A DNA stretch of 64,000 bases, from the NCBI GenBank assembly GCA_012959525.1, contig DUDB01000072.1:2098-66097 (forward strand). The letters are read 5' to 3'. The notes below the pieces were generated by a model. The model was not told where the DNA came from, did not search any database, and saw nothing but the letters and a program-made list of their open reading frames with translations. The position numbers and the translations under genes are program-made. Shown piece by piece: positions 11,414-59,479 of this stretch. Each line of letters begins with the position of its first letter. The stretch's first letter is position 1. The DNA is from Planctomycetota bacterium. Lineage in GTDB: Bacteria > Planctomycetota > UBA1135 > GCA-002686595.

Positions 11414-13900
11414 ATGTCGCCGCTCCCGCTCCCCCCGACCGCTTGGCCCGATCCCATGCTTACGATCTTCGCTTGTACGTTGACCTTGACAGGTTGCCTC
11501 TCGCCCTCGGCTCTCACTGCTCAGGATGGACCGGTTGATGCCAGAGGTCGTTTGGCGGCCCACGCGGTTCATGAGTCCATGCGTGCGGATACGCCTCACG
11601 CAGAACGCACCTGGCGCTTCATCGGGCCGACCAACGTCAGTGGCCGCGTGGTGGACATGGCCATTCCCACTCCGCGTGGGGAGCACTACACCCTCTACGT
11701 GGCCACGGCCACCGGCGGGCTGTGGCGCAGCCGCAACGAGGGAACGACCTTCGAACCTCTCTTTGAGGACGGGCCCACCGGCTCCATCGGAGCCCTGGCC
11801 GTGGACCCTGCGGACTCCGAGCGCCTTTGGATGGGGACGGGCGAGGCCAACATCTTCCGCAGCTCGATGGCGGGCACGGGCGTGTACCTGTCCGAGGACG
11901 GTGGGACGACCTTCACCCACATGGGCCTGGAGGACACGCACACCATCGCGCGCGTGTGCGTGCACCCGACCGATCCCAACACCGTCTACGTCGCCGCTAG
12001 CGGGCACGAATGGACGGACAACCCGGAGCGTGGCGTGTACCGCACGCGCGATGGGGGTCAAACCTGGAAGCTCGTGCTGTTCGTCGACGCGGGCACAGGC
12101 GCCATTGATCTGGCGTTGGACCCCCAGGACCCGAATCGCATCTACGCCGCCACGTGGGAGCGCAGGCGCGACCGTTGGAATGACCCTCGCACCTACCCCA
12201 CCACCCGAGGCAACGGAATTTGGCGCAGCGAAGACGGGGGGGACTCCTGGGACCCTATCAACGAGGGGCTGCCCCTGCCTGAGCACCGCGGACGCATCGG
12301 CCTGGCGACCACCCCCTCCCTCGCTGGCAGCCTGTATGCATTCGTGGACAACTACGAGCTGGTGGAGTTGGAAGAGGACGAGGAACGCGGCGAGGAGGAT
12401 GAAGAAGGCGAGGAGGATGAAGAAGGCGAGGAGGATGAAGAAGGCGAGGAGGATGCCGGCGGCACGGACTCCTACGGGCGCGAGAAGCAGCGGGAGATCA
12501 AGGGAGCCACGCTCTATCGTTCCTTGGATCACGGCAACACCTGGCAACAGGCCAGCGAGGAGAACCGTTACATGCGAGGCCTCTCCGCTACCTACGGCTG
12601 GGTCTTTGGGCAGGTGCGCGCGGACCCTGTGGACGCGGACAAGGTGTTCCTGATGGGCCTTGGGCTGAACGTCTCTGAGGATGGAGGCAAGACCTTCCGC
12701 TCTTTGCGCGGCATGCACGGCGATCACCACGCCCTGTGGATCGACCCGGCCAACACCGACTATCTGGTGAACGGCAATGACGGGGGCTTGGCCATCTCCT
12801 ACGACGGGGGTGAGAACTGGCGAACCTCCACCAACAACCTGCCGGCCGTGCAGTTCTACAACCTTGCCGTGGACATGGATGAGCCCTTCCATATGTACGG
12901 TTCCATCCAGGATCACGGCAGTCGGGTCGGTACGGCCTCGTCCGGCCAGCGGCGCCGCTGGCGCGGTGGCGGAGGTTCAGGAACAGAGTGGGGGGCGGCT
13001 TCGGGAGGAGAGGCGAGCTTCCACGCTGTGGACCCCACCGATGCGAGCGTCCTCTACTCGGAAGGGTTCTATGGGAGCATCCAACGCACCAACCTCGCGA
13101 GTGGAGAGCGCACCGGCCTTCAACCCAAGGCGGGTGATGGCGAGCCAGAACTGCGCGGTCAATGGCTCGCACCGTTCCTACTCTCTCCGCACAATTCCCG
13201 TGTCGTCTACCACGGGATGAATCGACTCTATCGCTCCATGCACATGGGCGAGGGCTTCGAACCCATCAGTCCAGATTTGACAGGCAATGACCCGGATCAG
13301 TTGGGGGACATTCAATATCAGACCATCACGGCCATTTCAGAGTCTCCGTTCACTTTTGGGGAGATCTACGTGGGCACCGATGACGGTCATCTGCACGTGA
13401 CCCATGATTCGGGCGCCCATTGGGAAGAGCGCACGGCGGGCCTGGCGCAGGAGCGCTGGATCTCGCGCGTGGTTGCCTCCGTGCACCAGGAGGGTGTGGT
13501 CTACGCGGCTCAGAACGGTAAGCGCTGGGATGACTTTGCGACCTACCTGTGGCGTTCTCCCGACCAGGGCCGGACCTGGGAGAGCATCGGTGCGGGTATT
13601 CCCTGCGGACCGGTCAACGTGGTGCACGAGGACCCCAAGGTCTCCGGCCTGCTCTACGCGGGAACCGACCTGGGGGTGTACGTGAGCATGGACGACGGTG
13701 ATACCTGGGACGTGCTGGGCGGAGGCCTGCCCAATACCTTCGTGCATGATCTGGTGGTTCATCCCCGGGACGGAGTCCTGCTTGCCGCCACCCACGGACG
13801 GGGTGTGTGGCAATTGAACGTGCGAACTCTCCAGGAGCCGGTAGAAGAAACGGCCGAGGAGCCCGACACCGAGCAAGGGGCGGGGGCGGAAGAGAACTAA
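11414..13900 (+). CDS. BNR/Asp-box repeat beta-propeller protein (sortilin/VPS10-like), probable lipoprotein
   Basis: Nine Asp-box motifs (SxDxGxTW type): SEDGGTTF, TRDGGQTW, SEDGGDSW, SLDHGNTW, SEDGGKTF, SYDGGENW, THDSGAHW, SPDQGRTW and SMDDGDTW. The track start at 11216 overlaps the CotH gene. Starts at 11414 (MSPLP) or 11456 (MLTIFACTLTLTGC, lipobox-like) are more plausible. Confidence 0.8.
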   Translation: MSPLPLPPTAWPDPMLTIFACTLTLTGCLSPSALTAQDGPVDARGRLAAHAVHESMRADTPHAERTWRFIGPTNVSGRVVDMAIPTPRGEHYTLYVATATGGLWRSRNEGTTFEPLFEDGPTGSIGALAVDPADSERLWMGTGEANIFRSSMAGTGVYLSEDGGTTFTHMGLEDTHTIARVCVHPTDPNTVYVAASGHEWTDNPERGVYRTRDGGQTWKLVLFVDAGTGAIDLALDPQDPNRIYAATWERRRDRWNDPRTYPTTRGNGIWRSEDGGDSWDPINEGLPLPEHRGRIGLATTPSLAGSLYAFVDNYELVELEEDEERGEEDEEGEEDEEGEEDEEGEEDAGGTDSYGREKQREIKGATLYRSLDHGNTWQQASEENRYMRGLSATYGWVFGQVRADPVDADKVFLMGLGLNVSEDGGKTFRSLRGMHGDHHALWIDPANTDYLVNGNDGGLAISYDGGENWRTSTNNLPAVQFYNLAVDMDEPFHMYGSIQDHGSRVGTASSGQRRRWRGGGGSGTEWGAASGGEASFHAVDPTDASVLYSEGFYGSIQRTNLASGERTGLQPKAGDGEPELRGQWLAPFLLSPHNSRVVYHGMNRLYRSMHMGEGFEPISPDLTGNDPDQLGDIQYQTITAISESPFTFGEIYVGTDDGHLHVTHDSGAHWEERTAGLAQERWISRVVASVHQEGVVYAAQNGKRWDDFATYLWRSPDQGRTWESIGAGIPCGPVNVVHEDPKVSGLLYAGTDLGVYVSMDDGDTWDVLGGGLPNTFVHDLVVHPRDGVLLAATHGRGVWQLNVRTLQEPVEETAEEPDTEQGAGAEEN
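12389..12455 (+). repeat. 18-bp in-frame tandem repeat (GGCGAGGAGGATGAAGAA x about 3.7) encoding (GEEDEE)n inside the BNR propeller gene
   Basis: Direct reading. Units lie at 12389-12406, 12407-12424 and 12425-12442, with a partial unit at 12443-12455. The translation is EEDEERGEEDEEGEEDEEGEEDEEGEEDAGG. Confidence 0.9.
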
Positions 13901-14188
13901 TTTCTGGCCGGGCGTTTTGGGCATTCGTAGCCCTCTGGCATAGTGCTAACGCCCGACCCGTCACGGGTGCCTAATAGGGCCCATAAAGCGCATTCGTATT
14001 CATCCGCACGGATGCCGTGATGTCTGGACAGAAATTAGGGGGCGGGGTAAGGTTGCAGCCGTCGCAACAACGAATACCAGTCGCTTTCCCATGACTTTTG
14101 CAGTTCGAGACTCCAATCCGTCCGCTCACGCAGAGAGACCTTGCCGCTCGCAGGGCTTGCCCGCCCCGGTTTCCCAGGGGGGCTCGCT

Positions 14189-14956
14189 GTGAAGGTGGGC
14201 ATTCTCGCTGGGGGCGTAGGGTCGCGTCTGTCTGAGGAGACGGTCCTCAAGCCCAAGCCGATGGTAGAGGTGGGGGGGCGGCCCATCCTTTGGCACATCA
14301 TGCAGCGCTACGCGGCGTTCGGGCACACCGAATTCGTGGTGGCCCTTGGCTATAAAGGCGAGTACATCAAGCGCTATATGCTCGACTACTGTTCGCTCAG
14401 CAGCAACTTGAAGGTTCACCTGGGCCAGGGTGAGGTGATTCAAGAGACGCGCGGTGGGGAAGAGGATTGGACGGTCGAGCTCATCGATACGGGCCAGGAA
14501 TCTGGAACAGGGGGCCGCATTCGCCAGCTTGTGCCTTACATGGGGGACGAGACGTTCATGCTGACCTGGGGCGACGGAGTCAGTAATGTCGACTTGGATG
14601 CCCTCCTCGACTTTCACCGGTCTCACGGAAAGCTCGCGACCGTGACGGCCGTCCGCCCGCCAGCACGTTTTGGCCTGATCGAAATGGACGGCGACAGAGT
14701 CGTGAGCTTCTCGGAGAAACCCCAATTGGGTGAAGGCTGGATCAATGGCGCTTTTTTTGTCTTCGAACCCGGCATCGCCGAGTACGTGGATGACGACCTT
14801 GTCATGTGGGAGCAATCTCCCATGGAGCGCTTGGCTGCCGACGGGCAGCTGATGGCTTACCGGCACCACGGTTTCTGGCAATGCATGGACACGTTGCGCC
14901 ACAAGAAACGACTTGAAGAACTCTGGGCCAAAGGGGACGCCCCCTGGCAGGCCTGA
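14189..14956 (+). CDS. rfbF: Glucose-1-phosphate cytidylyltransferase
   Basis: VKVGILAGGVGSRLSEETVLKPKPMVEVGGRPILWHIMQRYAAFGHTEFVVALGYKGEYIKRYMLDY matches the RfbF N-terminus almost motif for motif. INGAFFVFEP and the C-terminal WQCMDTLRHKKRLEELW also match. A GTG start at 14189 gives 255 aa (family-typical length) with a G-rich SD-like run at 14175-14181. The track ATG at 14141 would add 16 aa. Confidence 0.9.
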   Translation: MKVGILAGGVGSRLSEETVLKPKPMVEVGGRPILWHIMQRYAAFGHTEFVVALGYKGEYIKRYMLDYCSLSSNLKVHLGQGEVIQETRGGEEDWTVELIDTGQESGTGGRIRQLVPYMGDETFMLTWGDGVSNVDLDALLDFHRSHGKLATVTAVRPPARFGLIEMDGDRVVSFSEKPQLGEGWINGAFFVFEPGIAEYVDDDLVMWEQSPMERLAADGQLMAYRHHGFWQCMDTLRHKKRLEELWAKGDAPWQA

Positions 14957-18574: not shown

Positions 18575-19461
18575 CGATCCCGCGCGTCTCGATCGGCCTT
18601 CCGGTCTATAACGGTGAGAACTTCTTGGAGGACTGCCTGTGCTCTGTACTCACACAAACCCATGATGCCTTTGAGTTGGTGATTTCGGATAACGCCTCCG
18701 ATGACGGCACGGCCGAAATCTGCAAGGCCTTCGCGGGGCGGGACGACCGAATCCGTTACGTGCGCCAAGAGCGCAACAGTGGGGCGGCAGCCAACTTCAA
18801 CGAGGTCTTTCGCCTGTGCCGGGGAGAGTATTTCAAGTGGATGGCACACGACGACCTGTTGCAACCCACCTGGCTCGAGCGCTGCGTAGAAGCACTGGAC
18901 GCTTCGGGGCCCGAAGTTTCAGTGGCCTACACGGCTGTGTCGCACCTGCGCGAGGAGGAGGGAACTCTCCTCCCCTACGACGCGGAGTTCCCCTGGGGGG
19001 CCCCAACGCCCGCTGGGCGGCTGTCGCAGATGCTCGTGATGGATGGCGTGTCGATCCTGACCAAGTGCTATCCGGTATTTGGAGTGATGCGCAGGGAGGT
19101 CTTGGCGGGCACGCGCCTGATCCAACCCTTCAACGCTTCCGACAAGGTCCTCCTGGTGGAGCTGGCTCTGCGCGGAGACTTCGTGCAGGTTCCCGAGTAC
19201 CTGTTCCATCGCCGGCTACACGCGAACAACTCGCTTACTGCGAACCCCACCCCCCAGGATGTTCTCAAGTGGTTTGACCCCGATGCCAACCGTCCGGCCA
19301 CGGTCCACAAGGATCTGTGGGACGGATACCGAAATGCCGTTCGTGAGGCCAGCCTGCCCAGTGATCAAGCCCGCAGTTGTCGTCGGATCGTTCGGCGCTG
19401 GGCGTGGAAGCTTCGCAAACGCCTTGCCGGCGATGTGCTGCGCGGGGCCGGCCTACGCTAG
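18562..19461 (+). CDS. Family 2 glycosyltransferase
   Basis: VSIGLPVYNGENFLEDCLCSVLTQTHDAFELVISDNASDDGT is a classic GT2 N-terminus, and the AHDD (DxD-like) motif is present. The GTG start overlaps the upstream stop by 13 nt. Confidence 0.85.
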   Translation: MGRLTIPRVSIGLPVYNGENFLEDCLCSVLTQTHDAFELVISDNASDDGTAEICKAFAGRDDRIRYVRQERNSGAAANFNEVFRLCRGEYFKWMAHDDLLQPTWLERCVEALDASGPEVSVAYTAVSHLREEEGTLLPYDAEFPWGAPTPAGRLSQMLVMDGVSILTKCYPVFGVMRREVLAGTRLIQPFNASDKVLLVELALRGDFVQVPEYLFHRRLHANNSLTANPTPQDVLKWFDPDANRPATVHKDLWDGYRNAVREASLPSDQARSCRRIVRRWAWKLRKRLAGDVLRGAGLR

Positions 19462-20762
19462 CCGACACCCAGCCTGACGAGCTCGGCAACCAGGCTGTGG
19501 TAGTGGGGCCACAGGGGTGAGCCGGGGCCGATGCTCGGGAAGAGGTCGATCTGCTCAAAGGGGTCGCTCTGCAGATCGTAGAACTCGTCCGCTACGCCCG
19601 TTGATCGGATGAGTTTGAACCGATCATCCCGCACCGCCCGTGTGTGGGTGGTCCAGGGGGCCGGACCATTGGGTGTGAAGAACTCCGCGTAGACCGCATC
19701 GCGCTGGGGTTCGCTTGAGCCCCGAAGGTACGGCACCAAGCTCACGGAGTCCTCAGCTGCCGACGGCACCCCTGCCAAGTCGCCCAGGGTGGCGAAGATG
19801 TCGGTGGCTGTGACGAGGGCTCCACATTCGCCTTGGACCGTGCCTGCACCAGCGATGATCAAGGGGACGTTGACCCCTCCCTCGTAGAGGGTGCCCTTGG
19901 CCTGGGTCTTGTCGAACGGAGGTTCGGTGACGGCCGCGGCGGTGCCATTGTCGCCCATGAAGATCACGAGGGTGTCCGGGGGAATGACCTGCAGCAGCCT
20001 TCCGATCTCCGTGTCCATGGCCTCCGTCATGGCCTTCGCTTTGACAGCTTTGGATGAGCCGTTCTGCACGACGTCGCAGTTGCTGGTGGTCGGGCAGGCG
20101 CACAGACCGCTGGGCGGCACGTGGTGGGGTGTATGGGGGGCCTGGAAGGCGGCGTACAGCAGCCATGGCTCGGGCATGGTGAGTGCCGCCTGGATGGCCT
20201 CGTCAGCGCAATCGGTGGTGGCGTAGGTGGTGCTGGTCGACTCGCTACCGTTCACGACCTTCTGCCAGTTGAAGTAGTCGCTGATGTTGCCCATGGACCC
20301 GGCGTGGTAGCCGAAGCCGGACTTGCCCGGGTGCTTCTTGCCCTGACCCTGGCCCGCCAGATGCCACTTGCCGCTGACTGAGCTGGAGTACCCCGTGAGC
20401 ATTTCTGGCAGGGTGAATTCACTGAGGAGGAGCCCCTGATTGCCGTTGTTGACTGGCTGACCGATTCCGGTTCGGAAGCCATAGCGGCCCGTGAGGAGTT
20501 CGCTCCGCGTCGGGGAGCAGGTCGGGTTAGCCCAGGCGTTGCGGAACAGTAGCCCGCGCGTCGCCAAGCCGTCGATATTGGGAGTGCAGGGCGGAGCGCT
20601 GCCCTCGGCGTAGCAGGAGACCATGTCCACTCCCATGTCGTCCCCCAAAAGGATCAGGACGTTGGGACGCCGCACCAGCCGCGATGCTTGGTCCCGTGGA
20701 GTCTGGGCGCCGGATAGCTGGGTCAGCAGACAGGCGAGGAGGAGCAGGTGGGGGGCGTTCAT
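19458..20762 (-). CDS. Sulfatase (Cys-type, CSPTR)
   Basis: The internal ATG at 20760-20762 gives a signal peptide MNAPHLLLLACLLTQLSGAQ. Then PNVLILLGDDMG and NPTCSPTRSELLTGRY. The track start at 20888 adds a non-signal 42-aa extension. Confidence 0.9.
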   Translation of the reverse strand: MNAPHLLLLACLLTQLSGAQTPRDQASRLVRRPNVLILLGDDMGVDMVSCYAEGSAPPCTPNIDGLATRGLLFRNAWANPTCSPTRSELLTGRYGFRTGIGQPVNNGNQGLLLSEFTLPEMLTGYSSSVSGKWHLAGQGQGKKHPGKSGFGYHAGSMGNISDYFNWQKVVNGSESTSTTYATTDCADEAIQAALTMPEPWLLYAAFQAPHTPHHVPPSGLCACPTTSNCDVVQNGSSKAVKAKAMTEAMDTEIGRLLQVIPPDTLVIFMGDNGTAAAVTEPPFDKTQAKGTLYEGGVNVPLIIAGAGTVQGECGALVTATDIFATLGDLAGVPSAAEDSVSLVPYLRGSSEPQRDAVYAEFFTPNGPAPWTTHTRAVRDDRFKLIRSTGVADEFYDLQSDPFEQIDLFPSIGPGSPLWPHYHSLVAELVRLGVG

Positions 20763-20896
20763 GGTCAAGTGAATAGTAGTACCGACACAGGGGTGGGGAG
20801 GGTTGGCTCCAGATCTTGTGGCCCCTGGGTTGGGAATGGGGGCGTAGTTGGAGTCGCAGGGGCCCCGCTGTGCCTCAACATGCACCACCTCTACCG

Positions 20897-20925
20897 TTCA
20901 CGGGAGGGTCGGGCCCCGCTATACT
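20897..20925 (+). promoter_or_regulatory. Candidate sigma70-like promoter (TTCACG-N17-TATACT) upstream of the peroxiredoxin gene
   Basis: -35 TTCACG at 20897-20902, a 17-nt spacer, then -10 TATACT at 20920-20925, about 74 nt upstream of the ATG at 20999. This is a pattern match only, and promoter consensus in this lineage is unknown to me. Confidence 0.3.
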
Positions 20926-20998
20926 CCGCCCTCGCTGTCCGAGTGGGCGGCTTCTCATCGCTTTCAAATACTCCTTCGATCCCCGAGATCCTCGTACC

Positions 20999-21598
20999 AT
21001 GAGCAACTTTATCGGCAAAGCCGCCCCCGCGTTCAGCGCGCAGGCCGTAATGCCGGACGGCAGCACGCAGAGCGTGAGCCTGTCCGACTACTCCGGCCAG
21101 TACGTGGCCCTGTTCTTCTATCCCAAGGACTTCACCTTCGTGTGACCCTCCGAGCTCATCGCTTTCGACCACCGCATGGGTGAGTTCGAGAAGCGAGGCG
21201 TCCAGGTTCTGGGCGTTTCCATGGATGACGCGGAGACCCACGCCCGTTGGCGCGACACCGCGATCAACGACGGCGGAATCGGTCCCGTTGGCTATCCTCT
21301 TTTGGCGGACACGACCAAGCAGATGACCGCGGATTACAACGTGCTTCACGAGGAGTCGGGCTTCTCGGCGCGTGGTACGTTCCTGATCGATCCCGATGGG
21401 ATCTGCTGGCACGCCCTCGTGAACAACCTGCCCCTTGGCCGCGACATGGACGAGCTCATGCGCGCCATCGACGGGGTGCAGTTCTTCAAAGAGCACGGCG
21501 AGGTCTGCCCCGCGGGCTGGGCCACCGGAAAGGCCGGCATGGCTCCCAGCGAAGAGGGAGTCAAGAGCTACCTGACCGACCACGCCGACGGCCTCTAG
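20999..21598 (+). CDS. Typical 2-Cys peroxiredoxin (AhpC/Prx1 type) with in-frame TGA at the peroxidatic Cys codon: predicted selenocysteine peroxiredoxin
   Basis: ATG at 20999. The TGA at 21143-21145 is codon 49. Track ORFs 20816..21145 and 21176..21598 are in the same frame. The joined protein reads ...[14 protein letters not shown][U][28 protein letters not shown]...[11 protein letters not shown]...[31 protein letters not shown]... The conserved family motif is FTFVCPTE, so the TGA replaces the peroxidatic Cys. The resolving Cys is retained in EVCPAGW. Confidence 0.8.
21159..21196 (+). promoter_or_regulatory. Candidate bacterial SECIS hairpin 13 nt downstream of the in-frame UGA
   Basis: Hand-folded. 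UCGCUU (21159-64) pairs with AAGCGA (21191-96), with a bulged G at 21190. UCGA (21165-68) pairs with UCGA (21186-89), followed by a small internal loop. CACC (21170-73) pairs with GGUG (21179-82). The apical loop is GCAUG (21174-78). In total there are 14 bp. The apical loop lies about 29 nt from the UGA. Confidence 0.45.
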
Positions 21599-21620: not shown

Positions 21621-21657
21621 GAGCCCCGTCGGCCCCAGCGGTCGGCGGGGCTCTTTT
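21621..21657 (+). terminator. Rho-independent terminator after the peroxiredoxin gene
   Basis: GAGCCCCGTCGGCC (21621-34) pairs with GGTCGGCGGGGCTC (21640-53): 14 bp including two G-U pairs. The loop is CCAGC and a TTTT run follows at 21654-57. It lies 22 nt after the TAG stop. Confidence 0.65.
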
Positions 21658-21708
21658 GCGTACAACCCATTCAGAGCGTGCGTCCCCTGAGCACACGGAT
21701 GGGCTAGC

Positions 21709-24450: not shown

Positions 24451-25359
24451 ATGACGCTCTTCCTTGCCGCAGCTCTGACGCTGATTCCCGTTCAAGACGC
24501 GGGTGCCTCCAAGCCGCGCCCCGCGACCGTCGAGTTCGGACTGTGGCCCGATGGCGTGCCTGGGGCTCCAGCGGAGATCTCGCCCGAGGTGCTGAAGGAC
24601 CGGCCCGAGGGCGGAGACGCCCACGTCTCGAACGTGCACGTGCCCACGCTCACCGTGCACCTGCCCGAGCCCGGCAAGCGTACGGGCTGTGCCGTCATCA
24701 TCTGTCCGGGTGGAGGGTACGGGCTGCTCGCGATAGACAAGGAGGGCCACGACATCGCGCGTTGGTTCGCGGGGCAGGGCATTGTCGGCGCCGTCCTGAA
24801 GTACAGAATGCCCCGGCCGAGCGGACACGTGTACGGGCATGAAGCACCCTTGGCCGATTGCCGCAAGGCGTTCGAGTTGGTGCGCTTCCATGCGGACAAG
24901 TGGGGCGTTGATCCGCAGCGCGTGGGGGTCATGGGGTTCTCGGCGGGGGGTCACCTCGCAGCCTCGGCCTCGGTCCAGCTGCTTGAGAAACCCCCGGCCT
25001 TCACCATCCTGGTCTACCCGGTGGTCTCGATGCTGGAGGGGATCTCACACAGGGGGTCGGGCCAGAACCTCCTTGGCCCGGACGCGCCCGAGGAGCTGAT
25101 TCACCGCTTCTCCAGTGAACTGCACGTGACCGCCAAGACCCCTCCCGCCTTTCTCGTGCACACGTCCGATGACCCTGTGAAGGTTAGCAACTCACGCCTC
25201 TATGCTGCGGCTCTCGAGGTTGCGGGAGTGCCCTTTGAGTTGCATGTGTTCGCCCGCGGCGGTCACGGCTACGGCATGCGCCGTCCGGATCTTCCCGTGG
25301 GCCAGTGGCCGAATCTGCTCGCGAAGTGGATGAAGGCCGAGCGCTACTTCAAGAACTGA
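24451..25359 (+). CDS. Alpha/beta hydrolase (esterase/lipase-type)
   Basis: Signal peptide. Oxyanion region ICPGGGY. Nucleophile elbow GFSAGGHLA. C-terminal GGHGYG. Confidence 0.8.
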   Translation: MTLFLAAALTLIPVQDAGASKPRPATVEFGLWPDGVPGAPAEISPEVLKDRPEGGDAHVSNVHVPTLTVHLPEPGKRTGCAVIICPGGGYGLLAIDKEGHDIARWFAGQGIVGAVLKYRMPRPSGHVYGHEAPLADCRKAFELVRFHADKWGVDPQRVGVMGFSAGGHLAASASVQLLEKPPAFTILVYPVVSMLEGISHRGSGQNLLGPDAPEELIHRFSSELHVTAKTPPAFLVHTSDDPVKVSNSRLYAAALEVAGVPFELHVFARGGHGYGMRRPDLPVGQWPNLLAKWMKAERYFKN

Positions 25360-25385
25360 TCCAAGCCCTCTCGATTTCTTCCCGC

Positions 25386-27908
25386 ATGAGCCTCCTCCTC
25401 ACCTGCCTCTTGTCCTTTCAGCCCGTGGGCATCCACGCCAACGGGGTCGAGCAGCCCAACGTGCTCCTGATCATCTCGGACGATCAGGCCTGGACGGATT
25501 TCGGCTTCATGGGGCACGGACAGATCCAGACTCCGCATCTGGACCAGCTGGCCCAGGAGTCGCTGATGTTCCGGCGCGGCTACGTGCCGACGGCCTTGTG
25601 CCGTGCGAGCCTGGCGACTTTTGCCACGGGTCTCTACCCGCACCAGCACCAGATAACTGGCAACGATCCGCGCCCGCGGGACAACGGCCGGGATCGCATG
25701 CTTGAGTACATCGCAAGCGTCGACACTCTCCCGGGGCTTCTGGGGGAGGCGGGCTACAGGAGCCTGCAGACCGGCAAGTGGTGGGAGGGGAACTTCGCCC
25801 TGGGGGGCTTCACCGAGGGCATGACCCACGGGGATACGGCGCGCGGGGGTCGCCACGGGGACGTGGGCCTCACCATCGGCCGCGACACGCTGGCACCCGC
25901 CTTCGAGTTCATGGACGCCTGCCAGGATGAGGGGACACCCTTCTTCCTCTGGTACGCGCCCTTCCTGCCGCATCGGCCCCACAACCCGCCCGAGCGTCTA
26001 CTGGAGAAGTACCGGGTGGATGGTATCACCGACTCGGTGGCTCGCTACCGCGCCATGTGCGAGTGGTTCGACGAGACCTGCGGGGAGCTGCTCGCGCATC
26101 TGGAGGAGCGCGGGCTGGAAGAGGACACCCTGGTGGTCTTCGCCGTCGACAACGGCTGGGTCCAGCTTGAGGAGACCTCGGGCTACGCGCCGCGCTCCAA
26201 GCGCACGGCCTACGAGGGGGGCGTGCGTACGCCGATCCTGTTGCGCTGGCCGGGGCACATCGAGGCGGGGGAACAACCGCAGCCCGTGAGCACCATCGAC
26301 CTCGCGCCGACGATCCTCGCGGCTTGTGGTGTGCAGGTGCCCGAGGCGCTCCCGGGCGTGGACCTGCTCACGGCAACCGATCACGGTCCTGTGTTCGGCG
26401 CCGCCTACACCCACGACGTGATCAAGCTGGGCGATCCGTCCCGGAGTCTGCTCACCCGCTGGGTCTTGCGGGATTCCCACAAGCTCCTGGTGCACACCGA
26501 CCCCTCCAAGCCGGAGGAGCTCTACAACGTCGTCGAGGACCCCTTCGAGGAGCGCCCTCTCGAGGACGCGGCCACCCAAGCGGCCCTGCGCACCGAGCTC
26601 GATGCCTGGTACCCCGCCCGCCGTCCGAACCTGCTGGTGGTCGTGACCGATGATCAGCGCTTCGACCAACTCAGCTGTGAGGGGCACCCCGTACTCCAGA
26701 CCCCCAACATGGACCGCCTGGCAGCCGAAGGCCTGCGCTTTGCCAACTCATTCGTCACCACTTCGATCTGCGCAGCGAGCCGGGCCAGCCTCATGACCTC
26801 GCGCTGGGAGGGGAGCCATGGCTACACCTTCGGCACGCCGGCCATGGGTAAGCAACTGGCGGACGAGACCTACTTCGCCCGTCTACACGAAGCGGGCTAC
26901 TCCACCGGGTTCATCGGCAAGTGGGGGGTGCGTTTTGATCCGGGCGTGATGTCCGAGCACCTGGACACCTACCAGCCCCTCTCGCCGCCCTACCTGCGCG
27001 CGCGGGATGGGGAGGACGCGCGCCACCTCACGGACCGCGCCGCCGACAAGGCGATCGGGTTCATCAAGCAACAGGAGGGCGACCAGCCGTTCTGTCTGAC
27101 CCTGAGCTTCAACGCGCCCCACGCCGAAGACTCGAACCCGCTGCAGTACATTCCGCCGAGGGATCTGGCCGAGCTCCATGCCGATGCCGCGGTCGCCCTG
27201 CCGCCGCTCTCGGAGCCGAGTGTGTTCGAGGCCCTGCCCGAGTTCCTGCGCGGCTCCCTCAACCGCGAGCGTTGGGGCTGGCGCTTCGACACGCGCGAGA
27301 AGCAGGTGCAGCGCACCCTCGACTACTGGCGCATGATCGCGGGGGTCGACCGCGCCCTGGGCCGCGTTCTCGATGCGCTCGACGAGCAAGGGCTCGCCCA
27401 GGACACGGTCGTCGTCTTCACCAGCGACAACGGCTACTTCCTCGGCGAGCGCGGCTTCGCCGGAAAGTGGTTGATCTACGAGGAGTCCGTGCGCGTGCCG
27501 CTCATCATCCACGACCCGCGCCTGCCCGAGGGCCAAAGGGGCAGCCTGGTGGATCAGGTGGTGCTCAATGTGGACCTCGCTCCGACCCTCCTCGCCCTGG
27601 CCGGCGTTGAGGTCCCTGAGTCCTACGAGGGGCGCAGCCTGGTGCCACTCTTCGGACAGGCTCCCGAGAGTTGGCGCTCGGACTTCCTCTACGAGCACCG
27701 CATGAGCCACCCGGCCATTCCCAAGAGCGAGGGCGTGCGCGGTGAGCGCTGGGTGTACGCGCGCTACTACGAGCAGGAGCCTGTCTACGAGCAGCTCTTC
27801 GATCTGCGCTCCGACCCGTTGCAGCTCACGAACCTGGCCGCAGATCCGGCCTTTGAGAAGGTCCTCATTGCGCAGCGAGGGCGTTGTGACGAGCTGCTAG
27901 GACAGTGA
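25386..27908 (+). CDS. Tandem two-domain sulfatase-family protein
   Basis: The ATG at 25386 gives MSLLLTCLLSFQPVGIHA. Domain 1 has PNVLLIISDDQAWTDFG...PTALCRASLATFATG. Domain 2 has PNLLVVVTDDQRFD...TSICAASRASLMTS (C-x-A-x-R). The track start at 25305 overlaps the preceding gene. Confidence 0.85.
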   Translation: MSLLLTCLLSFQPVGIHANGVEQPNVLLIISDDQAWTDFGFMGHGQIQTPHLDQLAQESLMFRRGYVPTALCRASLATFATGLYPHQHQITGNDPRPRDNGRDRMLEYIASVDTLPGLLGEAGYRSLQTGKWWEGNFALGGFTEGMTHGDTARGGRHGDVGLTIGRDTLAPAFEFMDACQDEGTPFFLWYAPFLPHRPHNPPERLLEKYRVDGITDSVARYRAMCEWFDETCGELLAHLEERGLEEDTLVVFAVDNGWVQLEETSGYAPRSKRTAYEGGVRTPILLRWPGHIEAGEQPQPVSTIDLAPTILAACGVQVPEALPGVDLLTATDHGPVFGAAYTHDVIKLGDPSRSLLTRWVLRDSHKLLVHTDPSKPEELYNVVEDPFEERPLEDAATQAALRTELDAWYPARRPNLLVVVTDDQRFDQLSCEGHPVLQTPNMDRLAAEGLRFANSFVTTSICAASRASLMTSRWEGSHGYTFGTPAMGKQLADETYFARLHEAGYSTGFIGKWGVRFDPGVMSEHLDTYQPLSPPYLRARDGEDARHLTDRAADKAIGFIKQQEGDQPFCLTLSFNAPHAEDSNPLQYIPPRDLAELHADAAVALPPLSEPSVFEALPEFLRGSLNRERWGWRFDTREKQVQRTLDYWRMIAGVDRALGRVLDALDEQGLAQDTVVVFTSDNGYFLGERGFAGKWLIYEESVRVPLIIHDPRLPEGQRGSLVDQVVLNVDLAPTLLALAGVEVPESYEGRSLVPLFGQAPESWRSDFLYEHRMSHPAIPKSEGVRGERWVYARYYEQEPVYEQLFDLRSDPLQLTNLAADPAFEKVLIAQRGRCDELLGQ

Positions 27909-31864: not shown

Positions 31865-33508
31865 TTAGCGCTTCTGGGCTCCATCTGCCTTTTCCAATTG
31901 GGGCGCGGTCAGCGGATAGGGGTACTCGGGCGGCGTGAAACCCTCCCTGCGCTTGACTGGCCAAGGCAGGACGCCGCAGCGCTCGGCCCAGGCGTCGTAT
32001 GTCGCGGTCATCTTGGCGACGCGCTCGGGCTGGGCGGCGGCCTGGTCACTCGTCTCGCTCCGGTCGCCTGAGAGGTCGTAGAGCTCCCAAGGCTGCCCGT
32101 GCCGGGAGACAAGCTTCCACGGGCCCTCCCGGACGGCGCGGTTCCCTTCATGCTCAAAGAAGATGGGGGACGATCGTTCGAGGGCTTCGCCCCGTAGGAC
32201 TGGGACGAGGGAGACGCCTTCCAGACCGCCGATCTCGTTACCGCCGTGGTTCTTCGGGTAGCGGGCGCCCGCCAGCTCGTAGAGGGTCGGGGCGATGTCG
32301 ATCAGGTGACAGGGCTCACGCTGGATTGTGCCCTTGGCCTCGATGCCGGCGGGCCAGTGGGCGATGAAGGGCGAGGCAATCCCGCCCTCGTGCACCCAGT
32401 GCTTGTACATGCGGAAGGGCGTGTTGGAGGCGTTGGCCCAGCCCTTGCCGTAGGTCAGGAAGTAGCCCTCGCGGCCGCCGACCATCTCGTCGGGACTGCC
32501 GCCCATCAGGCCACCCTCCGCACACCCGCCGTTGTCGGCGAAGAACAGGATGAGAGTGTTGTCCAGGACACCGAGCTCTTCGAGCGTGGCGACCAGACGC
32601 CCCACGTTCTGGTCCAGGCGGTCGACCATGGCAGCGTAGATCGCCATGCGATGGGCCAGGGCCTGACGGCGCTCGGGGTCCGTCTCGTTCCAGGGCTTGA
32701 CGTCGAGTGGGGAGAGTTCGCTGTTTGCATGCAGGATGCCCAGCTCCTTCATGCGTTCGAAGCGACCCGCTCGCATAGGCTCCCAGCCCGTGTCGTACTT
32801 TCCCTTGTAGCGCTCGATGTCCTCGGGGGGAGCGTGCATGGGCCAGTGCGGAGCGGTGAAGGCCAGGTAAAGCGCGAATGGGTCGTCGCTGCGCTCCCGC
32901 GACTCGCGCACGTAGCCGATGGCGGCGTCAGTGAAGGAGTCCGAGGTGTAGAAGTCCTCGCCCGGGGCGACCGGTCGTCGGCCCTCCATCAACAGCTTGT
33001 CCGGGTGCGGCTTGAAGTGGTTGCTCCCGCCGCGGATGAGCCCGTAGTAGCGCTCGAACCCGCGGTCCATGGGCCACATGCCGCTGAAGGAGCCCACGTG
33101 CCACTTGCCTGCCATCAGGGTCCGGTAGCCCGCGCCCGCCAGCACCTCGGCAAATGTCAGCGAGGTGCGATTCAACTCACCGGTGTAGCCGGGGTAGCCC
33201 AGGTCCTGGCCACGACCCGCACCCTCGCTGGTCATCCAGCCGACCCCCGCCTGTTGCGCGTAGCGTCCCGTGAGGAGCGCGGCACGTGTGGGGCAGCAGC
33301 GGCCCGTGTTGTAGAACTGGGTCAGGCGCACCCCGTTCGCCGCCAGGCGGTCCAGGTGCGGCGTCGCGATCTCTCCGCCGAAGCAGCCGATATCGCTGTA
33401 GCCCATGTCGTCCGCCATGATGACGACCAGGTTGGGTCGCTGAGCCGGCTCCTGACCTTGGGCACCAGTGAGTATGAAGAGGGCTAGGAGGGGGGGGAGT
33501 GTGCGCAT
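31865..33508 (-). CDS. Arylsulfatase (Cys-type, CCPTR)
   Basis: Signal peptide. PNLVVIMADDMGYSDIGCFG, NTGRCCPTRAALLTGRY, GKWHVG and FFADNGG. Confidence 0.92.
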   Translation of the reverse strand: MRTLPPLLALFILTGAQGQEPAQRPNLVVIMADDMGYSDIGCFGGEIATPHLDRLAANGVRLTQFYNTGRCCPTRAALLTGRYAQQAGVGWMTSEGAGRGQDLGYPGYTGELNRTSLTFAEVLAGAGYRTLMAGKWHVGSFSGMWPMDRGFERYYGLIRGGSNHFKPHPDKLLMEGRRPVAPGEDFYTSDSFTDAAIGYVRESRERSDDPFALYLAFTAPHWPMHAPPEDIERYKGKYDTGWEPMRAGRFERMKELGILHANSELSPLDVKPWNETDPERRQALAHRMAIYAAMVDRLDQNVGRLVATLEELGVLDNTLILFFADNGGCAEGGLMGGSPDEMVGGREGYFLTYGKGWANASNTPFRMYKHWVHEGGIASPFIAHWPAGIEAKGTIQREPCHLIDIAPTLYELAGARYPKNHGGNEIGGLEGVSLVPVLRGEALERSSPIFFEHEGNRAVREGPWKLVSRHGQPWELYDLSGDRSETSDQAAAQPERVAKMTATYDAWAERCGVLPWPVKRREGFTPPEYPYPLTAPQLEKADGAQKR

Positions 33509-34827: not shown

Positions 34828-36258
34828 TCAGTAGCCGATGGCCTTGAGGGCCTCGAGCATGGCCTCATCCAGCTCGGGGGCCTCGCCTCGGCCTCCCTGT
34901 TCAGGGGAGGTCTCACGGGCGCGTTTCTCGAAGAGCTGCATGACCGCCTGCAGCTGCTCGAGAAGCTCCGGTTTGCTCTTCTTCAGGTTCTGGGTCTCGC
35001 GGGGGTCGTCCGTCAGGTTGTAGAGCTCCTCTCGGACCACCGGGCCCCAGGGGTCGAAGTCTACTTTGAGGGCCGCCTGTTCGTGTTTGCGCTCGTTGCG
35101 CACTAGCTCGGTGCGTTGGCGGAGATTGAGCCACTTGCGTGTCTGGATGTACTTCCAAGGGCCCACGGTCACGCTGCGTAGCACGTTCCTGTGCTGGATC
35201 AGGAGTTCGCTCAGCGTGGGGGTACGCTCCGTTAGGGGCCGCCCTTGGGGATCGATAAGCCTGTGACCATCGCTGGGCTCCGTGGATTCGATGCCCTGTA
35301 GTTGTTGAACGGTGGGCAGCACGTCCACCAGGGAGACTCGCTCGGGGATCCGCGACGGTTCGAGGGTACCGGGCCACCAGAAGATGAGAGGCACGTGCAG
35401 GACCTCCTGATAAAGAGTCCAGGCATGCTCCACGAAACCGTGCTCCAAGAACTCCTCACCGTGGTCGCTGGTGATCACGACCAGGGTGTTGTCGGCCACA
35501 CCCTGTGCTGTGAGTCCATCGAAGAGGCTCTTCAATGCCTGGTCGGTCCAGGTGATCTCCGCGTCGTAGCGCACCTGCTGATCTTCAAAAAGCGGATCGC
35601 CCGGGCCGAAGCCCTTGGATACGTACTCGGGAACCCGCTTGCGTAACTGGGTGTACAGGCCCACCGGGTCGGGGTGGATCTCGTCGGTGTAGCGCAACAT
35701 CAGCTCCTCGGGCGGGTCATAGGGCCCGTGAGGATCGAAGTAGTGCAGGTACATCATGAACGGGTCGTCGCCGCATTCGCGGACGAACTCAAGGGCGCGC
35801 TCGGAGAGCGCCTGGCCCTTTCCGCTCACCCCGCCCTTCTTGACCAGGTGCTCCACGCTCTCGAAGCCGCGGGCGTAGGCGGGGTCGGGGAGCATCAGGG
35901 TCGTCGTGAAGAACCCCGTGCGGTAGCCCTCCTGGGCGTAGGACGTACCCAGGGTCGGCAGGTGTTCGGGGGGGGTGGCGTACCAGCCGATACTGCCGCT
36001 CGTGGAGGGCAGATAGCCCGTGAGGAGTGCCGAGACGGACTCGCGTGTGAAGGACGACACGGACTGGGCGTTCTCGAAGACCATGCCCTGCTGGGCGATC
36101 TCATCCAGGAATGGAGATGTGTCGCGTTCGTAGCCGTGCAGGCCCAAGTGGTCGGCACGCAAGGTATCCACGACTATCACGACCAAGTTGCTGCGCGCGG
36201 GTTCGGACGGTGAACCGCAGGCGAAAAGCAGGGCTAGGGCAGATGCAGGAACACGCAT
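34828..36258 (-). CDS. Sulfatase-family (alkaline-phosphatase superfamily) protein with Thr at the nucleophile position
   Basis: NLVVIVVDTLRADHLG, SVSSFTRESVSALLTG, ITSDHGEEF. Lipoprotein-like N-terminus LALLFACGS. Confidence 0.85.
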   Translation of the reverse strand: MRVPASALALLFACGSPSEPARSNLVVIVVDTLRADHLGLHGYERDTSPFLDEIAQQGMVFENAQSVSSFTRESVSALLTGYLPSTSGSIGWYATPPEHLPTLGTSYAQEGYRTGFFTTTLMLPDPAYARGFESVEHLVKKGGVSGKGQALSERALEFVRECGDDPFMMYLHYFDPHGPYDPPEELMLRYTDEIHPDPVGLYTQLRKRVPEYVSKGFGPGDPLFEDQQVRYDAEITWTDQALKSLFDGLTAQGVADNTLVVITSDHGEEFLEHGFVEHAWTLYQEVLHVPLIFWWPGTLEPSRIPERVSLVDVLPTVQQLQGIESTEPSDGHRLIDPQGRPLTERTPTLSELLIQHRNVLRSVTVGPWKYIQTRKWLNLRQRTELVRNERKHEQAALKVDFDPWGPVVREELYNLTDDPRETQNLKKSKPELLEQLQAVMQLFEKRARETSPEQGGRGEAPELDEAMLEALKAIGY

Positions 36259-44014: not shown

Positions 44015-45568
44015 TCAGGGGCGCTCGCTGCCGATAAGGAGGTCGAGTAGCTCATCCAGATCCAGGATGTTGGGCATCCGCGGGTCTGTGGGGTCGAGGA
44101 CGACGCGCTTGATCTGGAGGTTCTGGGCGGCTTCGCGGGCCAGGTAGAGCCGACCGCCGGGGCTCTCAAGGACTTCGTTGTGAAGACGCTCCGAGAGAGC
44201 TCCCGCCTGGGCCAGAGCCAGCTGGCCCTGGGCCAGGAGGTGAGTCTTCTCGCTCCTGGCTTCCGATTGAAGCTGATGGACCGCAGCCCGGCTCTCACGC
44301 TCCAAGGCCTCTACCTGCTGGGCAAGGCCCAGGCCCTCGCCCAGGTTGACCTCGGTGAATTCGGCCTCGAGGCGGGCGGCATCTCCGAGATATTCCAGTC
44401 GGGCCTCGGCCAGGGAGAGAGAGGCCAGACGGTAGTCGAGGGCAAGGGGGTCTGCCGCCTCGGCAGTGACCGGCTTCGGATTCGCCACTGCCTTGGTCAG
44501 GGCTTTGGAAGCGCTCAAGAGGCGCTTGCCCTCTGCACTGGCCTCCGCCTCGGCAACCGCTCCGGCGGCGGCCACCTCGTGCGGGTATTCCTGAGCCGCC
44601 CGTTGGAGGGCATGCAGCTCCCGCTCCAGTTCAATGCGCTCCTGGGCAATCCGCAGATCCCACTCGGCTGCCAGGGCCCTCTGCTCGGCGGCCACCTCGT
44701 GCAGGCTGAACTCGCGCTGCAACTCGGCTGCTTGCAGGGCGGAGAGGGATTGGTTGGTCAGCTCGGTCTGGGTGGCGAGCTGCTTCTCATGCAGCTTGCT
44801 CTCGAAGGAGGGGTCGAAGTAGACCGCGCCGATGACGACCTCCATGGCCTCGAGGTGCACCTCTTCGAGATCGGCGTTGAGGCGTGTCAGTACAGCCTCC
44901 TCTACTTGCGCGCGTGCGTCGCTGCTGGCAAATGCGTCCGTGGACAACTGCCCCATCTCTTCCAGCAGCACGCGCCTTGCGATGGCTGTCACGCGGCGCG
45001 GGTAGTCGTTCTTCAGGCCCGCCTCAACCACACGCCAGGCCTGCCCGGGTTGGATCCGGTAGGGAATACACACGTTCACCTCGGCCGGGACGCCCCCTTG
45101 AATGGCCACGGCCAGCATGGGTTCGGTACCGCCGAGGTTCTCCCAGCCGAAGATCACGAACTGTGAGCCCCCGGCGATCTGATGCCAGGTGGAGCGGCCA
45201 CCCCAGGCGAGGTGGATGCCCGAGCCGTGGTCCCGTTCCACGATACCGGCGTTGTCGCCCCAGTTGATCTGCTCGACGGCCACCATGCCCGGGGGCACCC
45301 GTTCAAGGATCGAAGCACCCGCGATGCACACGACTGCCGCCATCACCAGGCCGCTGAGAGATGCCCTGAGAACTCGGCGCATGGGCCGCAGGCGATCACG
45401 CAGGCGGGTGGAAGAGGCGACGCCCCGGGCGCGCTGGAGGCAGGCACTGAAGAAGCCCCCGAGGACACTCAGGACTAAGGTGAACGGCCTTCCACAGGCG
45501 CGCAGCAGGGCTCCGAGGCCCCGCAGGATGGATCGGAAGACACCCTGGGTGGATTCGAGCATTGTCAT
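44015..45568 (-). CDS. SPFH/band-7 domain membrane protein with a long C-terminal coiled coil
   Basis: Arg-rich N-tail, TM LSGLVMAAVVCIAGASIL, SPFH-like core (VPPGMVAVEQ...GIHLAWGG...NVCIPYRI...) and about 250 aa of A/E/Q/L/R-rich heptad-like sequence. The ATG overlaps the upstream stop in an ATGA at 45565-45568. Confidence 0.7.
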   Translation of the reverse strand: MTMLESTQGVFRSILRGLGALLRACGRPFTLVLSVLGGFFSACLQRARGVASSTRLRDRLRPMRRVLRASLSGLVMAAVVCIAGASILERVPPGMVAVEQINWGDNAGIVERDHGSGIHLAWGGRSTWHQIAGGSQFVIFGWENLGGTEPMLAVAIQGGVPAEVNVCIPYRIQPGQAWRVVEAGLKNDYPRRVTAIARRVLLEEMGQLSTDAFASSDARAQVEEAVLTRLNADLEEVHLEAMEVVIGAVYFDPSFESKLHEKQLATQTELTNQSLSALQAAELQREFSLHEVAAEQRALAAEWDLRIAQERIELERELHALQRAAQEYPHEVAAAGAVAEAEASAEGKRLLSASKALTKAVANPKPVTAEAADPLALDYRLASLSLAEARLEYLGDAARLEAEFTEVNLGEGLGLAQQVEALERESRAAVHQLQSEARSEKTHLLAQGQLALAQAGALSERLHNEVLESPGGRLYLAREAAQNLQIKRVVLDPTDPRMPNILDLDELLDLLIGSERP

Positions 45569-46917: not shown

Positions 46918-47030
46918 GTTGCTGGGGGGTGGGAGGATCGGAGGCGTGTCCGTCCATGGGCACACCTTGCGAATGCCCTCCAACCCCGCACGCGATGCGG
47001 GTTCCGTCCCAATTCGATTCTGCTAGCCGC

Positions 47031-51879: not shown

Positions 51880-52045
51880 GGCGTCGGGTCCAACGGGGGC
51901 AATGGGACGCGCAGATACTGCGCGAACTCATGAGTGTGTGTATTGTCGCTGAAGAGACTGGAAGAGGGGAGTGAAAAGAGGCAGGAGGATATCCCAAATC
52001 CGGGAATCATCATTGGGGAGGTTATGGGGCATACAGACGCGAACT

Positions 52046-53988: not shown

Positions 53989-53991
53989 GGT

Positions 53992-55742: not shown

Positions 55743-55757
55743 GGATCGAGGTCGGGG

Positions 55758-57926: not shown

Positions 57927-58147
57927 CCTGATAGCGCGGAGTGGACCCTGATGGGAGGGCGTGGGGCCGGGCCCCGGGGCTCGGCAGGGGTCGAAGTTCA
58001 CCTCTTGGCGGTGGCAGATAGCGGAGCGGGTGGCGAGGCTTCTGGCGCGCGCTGCCCAACCCGGATACCTTGACTGCCGCTCGCTGCGTGCTTGGAGGTG
58101 CCAAGGCGTGCTGGCCGTCTACTCCCCCTCATGCAGGACAAACAACA

Positions 58148-59479
58148 ATGAAGGTTTTGGTCGTGGGTTCGGGTGGGCGTGAGCACGCCTTGTGTTGGAA
58201 GCTGTCGAGGTCTCCCAAGGTGAGCGAGGTGCTGTGCGCACCTGGCAATCCTGGTACGGCGCAAGTGGCCCGTAATGTGGATGTGGCTTCCGGGGACACC
58301 GAGGGCCTCTTGAGCCTGGCCAGCACCGAAGCGGTGGCACTGGTCGTTATCGGTCCCGAGGACCCTCTTGTGGGGGGGCTTGCGGATCGTTTGCGCGAAG
58401 CGGGCATCCCGACCTTCGGTCCGGGTGCGGATGGTGCTCAGCTAGAAGGTTCCAAGATCTTCTCCAAGAGTTTCCTCGATCGCTACCGCATCCCCACCGC
58501 AGCCGCGCGGCAGTTTGACCGCTCAGGCGCGGCCAAGAGCTACCTGGAAGGCTGCACCACCTGGCCGCAGGTGGTCAAGGCAGATGGCTTGGCGGCGGGT
58601 AAGGGCGTGTACGTGTGCGCCAACGTGGCGGAGGGACTCAGTGCCATCAATGTGATCATGGAGGAGTGCCGTTACGGAAACGCCGGTGCACGTGTGCTCA
58701 TCGAGGAGTTCATGGATGGGGAAGAGGCCAGCATCTTTGCGGTCACGGACGGCAAGACGATCCTGATCATGGAGGCGGTTCAGGATCACAAGCAGGTCGG
58801 CGATGGAGATCAGGGTCCCAACACGGGTGGCATGGGCGTGCACTCTCCCGTCGATGCCCTGAACGAACGGCTCCACAAGCAGATTGAACAACGCGTCCTG
58901 GTGCAGACCCTGCACGGCTTGCGTCAAGAGGGCATTGACTATCGTGGCGTCCTGTTCGTGGGCCTGATGCTCACCGACAGCGGGCCGAGGGTCGTGGAGT
59001 ACAACGTGCGCTTCGGCGATCCCGAATGTCAGGCCCTGATGATGCGCCTGGAAGGAGATCTGTTCCCGATCCTCTTGGCGGCCGCCAACGGGGATCTGGC
59101 TAGCATCGATCCACCACACTGGGACAAGCGCGCGGTCATTGGCGTGGTCGCTGCGGCCAAGGGCTATCCGGGGTCGCCGCAGGCTGGGGACATGGTCCAC
59201 GGGTTGGAAGAGGCCAGTGCTGTGGAGAGCACGATGGTGTTCCATGCGGGTACGCGAGCCGAGGGCGACGAGATCCACACCAGTGGGGGGCGCGTTGTCT
59301 GTGTTACGGCGCTGGGAGCGGACAAGGAGGAGGCGCGCGAGCGTGCCTACTCGGCCTACGATCTGCTTGAGTGGGACGGTAAGTTCTGTCGCCGGGACAT
59401 CGGAACCCGGTCCGAGGCCCGAGCAGCCATGGAGGCTGCCGCGGAGGCCAAGATGGAGCTTTTGGGCGAGCCTGACTGA
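58148..59479 (+). CDS. purD: Phosphoribosylamine--glycine ligase
   Basis: MKVLVVGSGGREHALCWKL. ATP-grasp core VVKADGLAAGKGV. GPNTGGMG. EYNVRFGDPE. C-terminal GGRV. Confidence 0.93.
   Translation: MKVLVVGSGGREHALCWKLSRSPKVSEVLCAPGNPGTAQVARNVDVASGDTEGLLSLASTEAVALVVIGPEDPLVGGLADRLREAGIPTFGPGADGAQLEGSKIFSKSFLDRYRIPTAAARQFDRSGAAKSYLEGCTTWPQVVKADGLAAGKGVYVCANVAEGLSAINVIMEECRYGNAGARVLIEEFMDGEEASIFAVTDGKTILIMEAVQDHKQVGDGDQGPNTGGMGVHSPVDALNERLHKQIEQRVLVQTLHGLRQEGIDYRGVLFVGLMLTDSGPRVVEYNVRFGDPECQALMMRLEGDLFPILLAAANGDLASIDPPHWDKRAVIGVVAAAKGYPGSPQAGDMVHGLEEASAVESTMVFHAGTRAEGDEIHTSGGRVVCVTALGADKEEARERAYSAYDLLEWDGKFCRRDIGTRSEARAAMEAAAEAKMELLGEPD

Follow-up and report, generated by a model that had tools for sequence, protein, structure and literature searches.

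A peroxiredoxin frame interrupted by a UGA codon

We analyzed a stretch of 64,000 nucleotides from a Planctomycetota bacterium (GenBank assembly GCA_012959525.1, contig DUDB01000072.1, positions 2,098 to 66,097 of the forward strand; the whole stretch is called the window, and coordinates are counted from its first nucleotide). The analysis centers on a peroxiredoxin (Prx) gene that is predicted to encode selenocysteine (Sec) at its catalytic position and that the list of open reading frames (ORFs) presents as 2 pieces, 20816..21145 and 21176..21598. Both pieces share one frame, and translation gives a single reading frame of 199 codons at 20999-21598 on the plus strand, the sole internal stop of which is a TGA at codon 49 (21143-21145). 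An earlier interpretation made from the letters and the ORF list only (the sequence-only reading) had joined the 2 ORFs from the ATG at 20999 and had placed the TGA, as the only interruption, on the peroxidatic Cys. The ORF list and the translation bear out the joined frame of 199 codons, and the placement of the TGA is confirmed by an alignment with human Prx2 and by Pfam matches that run across this codon.

For Pfam scoring of the Prx, a Cys was put in place of codon 49. The resulting product matched AhpC-TSA (PF00578) over residues 5-135, spanning the TGA, with an E-value of 1.3e-37 and 128.9 bits (cut-off 26), and its C-terminal extension domain was recognized by 1-cysPrx_C (PF10417) with 1.8e-09 and 37.9 bits (cut-off 21.1); the Redoxin family matched as well. 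Human Prx2 (1qmv) is collinear with residues 5-195 (E = 9e-61), with codon 49 falling on Cys51 and C170 on Cys172. The active-site motif reads P42-K-D-F-T46-F-V-U49, which is the PxxxTxxC pattern with U replacing C, and the C-terminal resolving Cys in a VCP motif that defines typical 2-Cys peroxiredoxins is present in the window protein. The arginine at codon 125 aligns with the active-site Arg of Prx2, a residue with an established catalytic role in peroxiredoxins. With human Prx2 and the NCBIfam model NF011576 the protein shares the peroxidatic position, the Thr, the Arg, the GG(L/I)G motif, the resolving Cys of EVCPAGW and the C-terminal domain; what sets it apart from typical 2-Cys peroxiredoxins is the predicted Sec in place of the peroxidatic Cys. 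Eukaryotic "sensitive" peroxiredoxins carry GGLG and YF, whereas the window protein has GG(I)G and a C-terminal YL. NF011576 ("peroxiredoxin C", 212.2 bits, cut-off 301) and the AhpC model TIGR03137 (146.8 bits, cut-off 272) were the best-matching NCBIfam models, yet with scores under both cut-offs the window protein stands outside these narrowly defined sets.

The window has a G+C content of 64.7%. Its other ORFs (41, non-overlapping and with high G+C at third codon positions, GC3) stop at TGA in 24 cases, at TAG in 13 and at TAA in 4. Those that end with TGA include 14141..14956 (Pfam label NTP_transferase) and 58070..59479 (GARS, purD), that is, both genes that the sequence-only reading had named as examples of an ordinary TGA stop (rfbF, 14954-14956, and purD, 59477-59479). 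Because 24 of the 41 ORFs stop at TGA, recoding at codon 49 would be local. A scan of the window for further TGA-interrupted genes, which was crude and noisy and required GC3 >= 0.72 on both sides, returned 56 candidates, nearly all of them in antisense or overlapping frames, and found no redox motif except that of the Prx.

The features of the gene are collected in Table 1. The promoter-like match upstream and the strong terminator-like hairpin downstream suggest that the Prx gene may be monocistronic.

Table 1. Features of the peroxiredoxin gene and its immediate surroundings in the window.
Feature	Positions	Strand	Basis or remark
Sigma-70-like promoter match TTCACG-17-TATACT, upstream of the start codon	20897..20925	+	Consensus match only; 1 found against 0.1 expected
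Prx coding sequence, typical 2-Cys (Prx1/AhpC-type), 199 residues through one in-frame UGA	20999..21598	+	Translation, Pfam, Prx2 alignment, ratio of nonsynonymous to synonymous change (dN/dS)
UGA codon 49, predicted Sec at the peroxidatic Cys of PxxxTxxC/U (P42, T46, U49)	21143..21145	+	Prx2 alignment, relatives
Hairpin in the coding sequence, similar to a bacterial selenocysteine insertion sequence (SECIS), 15 pairs; bulges A21183, U21185, A21191	21159..21196	+	Minimum free energy (MFE) fold
Apical loop GCAUG, starting 28 nt past the UGA	21174..21178	+	MFE fold
CGT codon 125, conserved active-site arginine (SARGTF)	21371..21373	+	Aligned with the Arg of AYRGLF in Prx2
TGC codon 170, resolving cysteine in EVCPAGW	21506..21508	+	Aligned with Cys172 of human Prx2 (GEVCPAGW)
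Intrinsic-terminator-like hairpin (21621-21653), 14 pairs (11 G-C), then TTTT	21621..21660	+	23 nt past the stop codon

Conservation of the UGA and its exchange with cysteine

An in-frame stop may arise from faulty sequencing or assembly, or it may be a nonsense mutation newly acquired by a pseudogene in decay, and the presence of the stop codon, nothing more, speaks for such an origin here. Six independently assembled contigs were compared (L016-L021, from four NCBI metagenome assemblies, JGI 3300001683 and the Logan assembly of SRR3577362). In all of them the 600-nt gene was 100% identical, TGA included, and the flanks were 99.96-100% identical over up to 13 kb; the 140-amino acid (aa) downstream product is on record for 14 contigs. 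The window corresponds to JGI contig GBIDBA_10000492, identical across the 13 kb compared, and its purQ with neighboring genes occurs also on contig DQKT01000152.1 of the metagenome-assembled genome (MAG) GCA_015660505.1. The check for read errors that had been called for was thus made through independent assemblies, and these agree on the TGA.

We then compared the window gene with 3 of its relatives (L001, L009 and L007). The proportion of synonymous differences (pS) was 0.48-0.65, so that synonymous sites are nearly saturated, and dN/dS was 0.045-0.084 upstream and 0.074-0.094 downstream of the TGA. Because synonymous sites are nearly saturated and dN/dS is low on either side of the TGA, these substitution patterns indicate that both halves of the Prx are translated and under purifying selection. 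The TGA is kept in 4 diverged relatives; it stands at codon 49 in every close relative examined, Cys forms excepted, and no close relative carries an extra stop or frameshift. As judged from these alignments, conservation of TGA at codon 49 is far beyond chance. The view of the sequence-only reading that conservation continues past the TGA and that the gene is not decaying therefore holds.

To determine how widespread this arrangement is, we searched a collection comprising a single genome for each GTDB species with a degenerate DNA pattern encoding DFTFV-TGA-P.x.E.IAF. The pattern matched in 81 species-representative genomes, mostly marine MAGs labelled Planctomycetota, Verrucomicrobiales, Deltaproteobacteria/Thermodesulfobacteriota and Neomarinimicrobiota, together with single Myxococcota and Flavobacteriales bins, and wherever the copy was not cut off at the end of its contig, the frame remained open for 145-167 codons past the TGA. 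The closest species representative is MAG ANT-40 (L051), with 92.7% nucleotide identity in the gene and approximately 82% in the flanks, and the TGA is also present in 17 metagenome relatives. A TGA that is conserved at a pS of approximately 0.5 with dN/dS of 0.05-0.13 on both sides, that occurs in 81 species, and that is followed by an intact frame in every complete copy is not what an error or a pseudogene would leave behind, and on these comparative data we regard both as excluded.

The database records of these genes raise a different possibility, namely that the gene is truly split, with the TGA ending a 48-residue peptide and a 140-residue C-terminal part made separately from the ATG at 21176. 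Gene callers annotate 2 pieces in nearly every database entry, and there is indeed an ATG 30 nt past the TGA. In a protein search, 140-aa fragments formed 3 clusters (71, 37 and 51 members; 86-89% identity), and one full-length relative was found at 83%; the DNA of such fragments, from 2 different gene neighborhoods, showed the same layout of a 48-codon ORF, the TGA, a 30-nt gap and the called ATG. However, the 10 residues encoded between the TGA and this ATG belong to the active-site helix, and their protein sequence is strongly conserved. The Met is not conserved; I or L stands in its place in many of the Sec forms, and numerous database fragments begin only with a later Met (125 aa). Moreover, neither fragment would have the catalytic residue. 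We consider a truly split gene very unlikely, and the 2 pieces are better described as an annotation problem: the statement that such genes are routinely mis-annotated applies to this clade, in which nearly all database entries consist of a 48-aa plus a 140- or 125-aa fragment.

Orthologues switch between Cys and TGA at codon 49 with the downstream sequence intact, which is the alternation that the sequence-only reading had proposed to look for. In an average-linkage clustering of 150 distinct proteins, which is not a phylogeny, several all-Sec and all-Cys groups interleave. The Cys form P0125 (199 aa) falls in the same 90% cluster as the window protein. Its locus, L140 (10001-10600; also L141 and L142), is the syntenic orthologue of window positions 20999-21598, and the order of genes is that of the window: sulfatase, Prx, PhoD, GCE_fung, sulfatase and DUF7133. 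The 2 Prx genes are 91.3% identical in nucleotides and 93.5% in residues, and codon 49 of L140 is TGC, not TGA. The clade around L140 consists of Sec forms with an intact hairpin, and L140 therefore looks like a recent conversion from Sec to Cys with a relic SECIS, a direction of change that we infer from this clade context.

A SECIS-like hairpin downstream of the UGA

The MFE fold of the 68 nt from the UGA contains the hairpin listed in Table 1, which can be extended by 3 pairs to 21154-21199. The published model of bacterial SECIS elements (bSECIS) requires an upper stem of 4-16 bp, a loop of 3-9 nt with G as its first or second base, a spacing between UGA and loop of 16-37 nt, and an MFE <= -7.5 kcal/mol (PMC13188914, Fig. 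2). On all 4 criteria the window hairpin agrees with the model: it has a 5-nt loop with G as its first base, an upper stem of at least 4 bp, a spacing of 28 nt, and an MFE of -18.1 kcal/mol. The first loop G (21174) is invariant in the 49 sequences described below. Compared with the E. coli fdhF-type SECIS and the bSECISearch consensus, the hairpin shares the position 3' of the UGA, a small loop with G first, the 28-nt spacing and a stable upper stem, and it differs by having C as the second loop base instead of the usual G or U and by bulges on the 3' arm. The search for a SECIS that had been suggested on the basis of the DNA alone thus yielded a hairpin that fits the published description and that has comparative support.

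Covariation was analyzed in a gap-free alignment of 49 distinct sequences that share the hairpin type of the window. The search pattern had fixed only non-synonymous positions in columns 1-23, and the 3' arm and all third positions were free. With the structure of Table 1, 91.0% of the cells were paired, compared with 23.9-50.6% when the 3' arm was slid by 1-3 columns. Cells changed on both sides numbered 33, against 12.3±2.6 in column shuffles, and 0 of 500 shuffles reached 33. Compensatory changes were found at five pairs, for example between CG and UA at 24-46 and 30-38 and between AU and GC at 29-39. The RNAalifold consensus recovered the lower stem and only 2 pairs of the upper stem, because the pairing register shifts between lineages; the counts made for the structure of Table 1 gave more information.

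As a negative control, we used a set of 29 sequences: 27 of the 32 close relatives that the metagenome scan had returned, together with L015 and the window. All TGA forms (17/17) kept 13-15 of the 15 pairs, while all TGC forms (12/12) kept only 4-11. Among the low-pairing TGC forms are some that share 81-82% protein identity with the window protein and are no more distant from it than many Sec forms. We also determined the fraction of synonymous differences per identical-residue codon pair in the stem codons and in the rest of the gene. In 55 Sec forms this fraction was 0.318 in the stem codons and 0.518 in the rest of the gene; in 11 Cys forms the values were 0.339 and 0.311, respectively. 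The synonymous dip at the stem codons thus occurs in Sec forms only.

Other Sec-Prx copies differ in this region. Those of Deltaproteobacteria/Thermodesulfobacteriota carry a second, different hairpin right after the UGA, AUYGCCUUGG-AY-AAGGCRAU, which is found within 60 nt past the TGA in L023, L028, L037, L042, L045, L052, L055, L074-L076, L088-L090, L093, L094 and L102, and which shows apparent compensatory changes (AUCGCC...GGCGGC versus AUUGCC...GGCAAU). The copies of L059 and L068 match neither hairpin type. One hairpin type is common to Planctomycetota, Verrucomicrobiales, Marinisomatota and Myxococcota bins, and the 60 nt past the TGA are identical in 2 MAGs assigned to different phyla, Flavobacteriales NORP269 (L087) and Planctomycetota casp150-mb.290 (L099). 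This sharing across phyla may reflect either horizontal transfer of the gene together with its SECIS or binning contamination.

Predicted selenocysteine and relation to known peroxiredoxins

Altogether, we read the region as encoding one selenoprotein, a thioredoxin-dependent typical 2-Cys Prx with Sec as the peroxidatic residue U49, to which we give a probability of roughly 90%; the interpretation as a predicted Sec-Prx that the sequence-only reading had put forward is thereby supported. Insertion of Sec at UGA 49 is a prediction. In the proposed mechanism, the hairpin at 21159-21196 would act as a bacterial SECIS and recruit SelB-GTP-Sec-tRNA(Sec) when the UGA at 21143-21145 is in the A site. 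Insertion of Sec would compete with release factor 2 (RF2) and result in the full 199-residue chain. The selenolate of U49, positioned by P42, T46 and R125, would attack H2O2 or an organic hydroperoxide and become a selenenic acid, which would form a selenenylsulfide with the resolving C170 of the partner subunit that thioredoxin would then reduce. This catalytic cycle is modelled on homology to Prx2/AhpC and on established peroxiredoxin chemistry, and a role of Sec in resisting irreversible over-oxidation would be speculation.

Several observations weigh against this reading. The second base of the loop is C, where the published model has "mostly" G or U (PMC13188914). The hairpin alone is not significantly stabler than shuffles of this GC-rich sequence (z = -1.48); because this single-sequence value is not significant, we relied on the comparative evidence. 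The Cys orthologue L140 retains 14 of the 15 hairpin pairs, which shows that the hairpin can also occur outside TGA forms. Finally, no tRNA-Sec, selA or selD was found in the window, in its contig extension of roughly 20 kb (about 85 kb of this genome in all, including approximately 10 kb beyond the window end), or in 981 kb of related loci, with selB not included in the search. The search used ARAGORN and Rfam on the window, and ARAGORN and tblastn on 136 sequences (981 kb), and the tblastn queries, E. coli SelD and SelA, served as leads only. Because the loci covered are a tiny fraction of any genome, this negative result says little either way. The genes encountered along the source contig encode sulfatases, Band_7 proteins, a MoxR/DUF58/VWA cluster, purL, purQ, purD, Fur, a Tricorn protease, accA and an ECF sigma factor. 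Complete sel gene sets occur in some Planctomycetes (PMC4807772), which lends plausibility at the level of the phylum only. An ORF beside the Prx gene in L001 was considered as a SelW-like selenoprotein and rejected, since it appears to encode a small hydrophobic protein without a CxxU motif.

The UGA could also be recoded to a residue other than Sec, either to Cys by a tRNA(Sec)-like tRNA and a SelB-like factor, or to Trp or Cys by near-cognate read-through that the hairpin stimulates. The inserted residue is predicted here, and the sequence searched (981 kb) contained no selA or selD, both of which leave room for this explanation. Some bacteria reportedly have systems that recode Sec to Cys. 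However, the hairpin fits the bSECIS model of the SelB type, and Sec-Prx is an experimentally established family. In addition, Cys is only a single A-to-C change away, a step that L140 has taken, and still 81 species retain the UGA; for this reason we disfavor recoding to a non-Sec residue and consider it unlikely. Marginally less likely still is that the UGA and the hairpin direct the insertion of something else than canonical Sec, for example Cys brought by a tRNA that derives from tRNA(Sec) and is delivered in a SelB-like manner, after loss of selA and selD from the lineage. If insertion of a non-Sec residue were true, the widespread marine clade to which this Prx belongs would be the sign of a recoding system that does not use Sec.

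The remainder of the window provides the genomic setting of the gene. At least 5 sulfatase genes are present (19458-20888, 25305-27908, 31865-33508, 34828-36258 and 41490-43787), as are genes for PhoD, a GCE_fung esterase, a DUF7133/NPCBM protein and two 3keto-disac_hyd proteins. Such gene content is typical of polysaccharide-degrading marine Planctomycetota. On the minus strand, 51241-56834 encodes a MoxR-type AAA ATPase, a DUF58 protein and 2 VWA-domain proteins, a Bat/MoxR-like cluster that adjoins an ORF of 1304-1316 aa without a Pfam match and two Band_7/SPFH genes (44015-46983). The gene that immediately follows purD (59500-59940, plus strand) encodes a Fur-family regulator; at a distance of approximately 38 kb, it is not taken to be linked to the Prx gene. 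Around position 12425 (region 11600-13920), the window, which is contig L018 of the comparison above, lacks 16 nt (AGAGGACGAGGAACGC) relative to the near-identical contig L017. L017 has one ORF of 767 aa without a Pfam match at this place, and the window version is split into pieces of 346 and 428 aa, which may be due either to a strain-level frameshift or to an assembly difference. L016 differs in its upstream part, with a 318-aa minus-strand ORF where L017 and L018 have an LTD/CotH gene.

Sec-containing peroxiredoxins with a TxxU motif are an experimentally verified and abundant selenoprotein family of bacteria. Catalogues of marine metagenomes, including 43 Sargasso sequences, and of bacterial genomes list them (Zhang, Fomenko and Gladyshev 2005, PMC1088965; Peng et al. 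2016, PMC5029168), and they occur in 78 of approximately 5200 bacterial genomes (PMC5029168). With this TxxU family the window protein shares the AhpC-TSA fold, Sec for the peroxidatic Cys in PxxxTxxU, a SECIS directly past the UGA, a marine origin and widespread Cys homologues, and we see no essential difference between them. Neither the window gene nor its clade is individually named in the 2 catalogues (PMC1088965 and PMC5029168), and Prx is not mentioned in the main text of the BSepDB paper. Biochemical proof of a Sec-Prx comes from Eubacterium acidaminophilum (Sohling 2001, cited in PMC13188914), and this protein, PrxU, is the only Sec-Prx known to have direct biochemical evidence. PrxU (NCBIfam NF040737, peroxi_PrxU) and the window protein have in common a thioredoxin-dependent Prx with Sec at the peroxidatic position, which in the window protein is a prediction. 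The window protein scored 153.9 bits against NF040737, under the cut-off of 270, and representatives of three other Sec clades, those of Verrucomicrobiales, Marinisomatota and Deltaproteobacteria, miss this model as well (149.8-168.6 bits). These sub-cut-off scores point to a lineage of the Prx superfamily distinct from PrxU. By this measure the window Prx is of a different lineage from PrxU, the one from an aerobic marine Planctomycetota bacterium and the other from an anaerobic Firmicute.

The window Prx is a mis-annotated member of a selenoprotein family known for 20 years, and as such it changes neither the knowledge of recoding nor that of peroxiredoxins and would not surprise a selenoprotein specialist; it is a well-supported added example of Sec/Cys exchange. 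Much more likely than non-Sec recoding is that the gene belongs to an uncurated Prx1-type Sec-Prx clade, distinct from PrxU, in which gene and SECIS form a module common to Planctomycetota, Verrucomicrobiales, Marinisomatota and Myxococcota MAGs. Because no NCBIfam model captures this clade and standard gene callers are used, it is stored as fragments, and nearly all of its database entries, which consist of 2 fragments labelled "peroxiredoxin" or unnamed, call for an annotation fix. As a consequence of the fragmented annotation, a main peroxide scavenger and the predicted selenium dependence of these abundant marine Planctomycetota are invisible to metabolic reconstructions. The window gene and L140 form a natural matched U49/C49 pair, with which it can be asked what Sec gives to a 2-Cys Prx, be it rate or resistance to over-oxidation.

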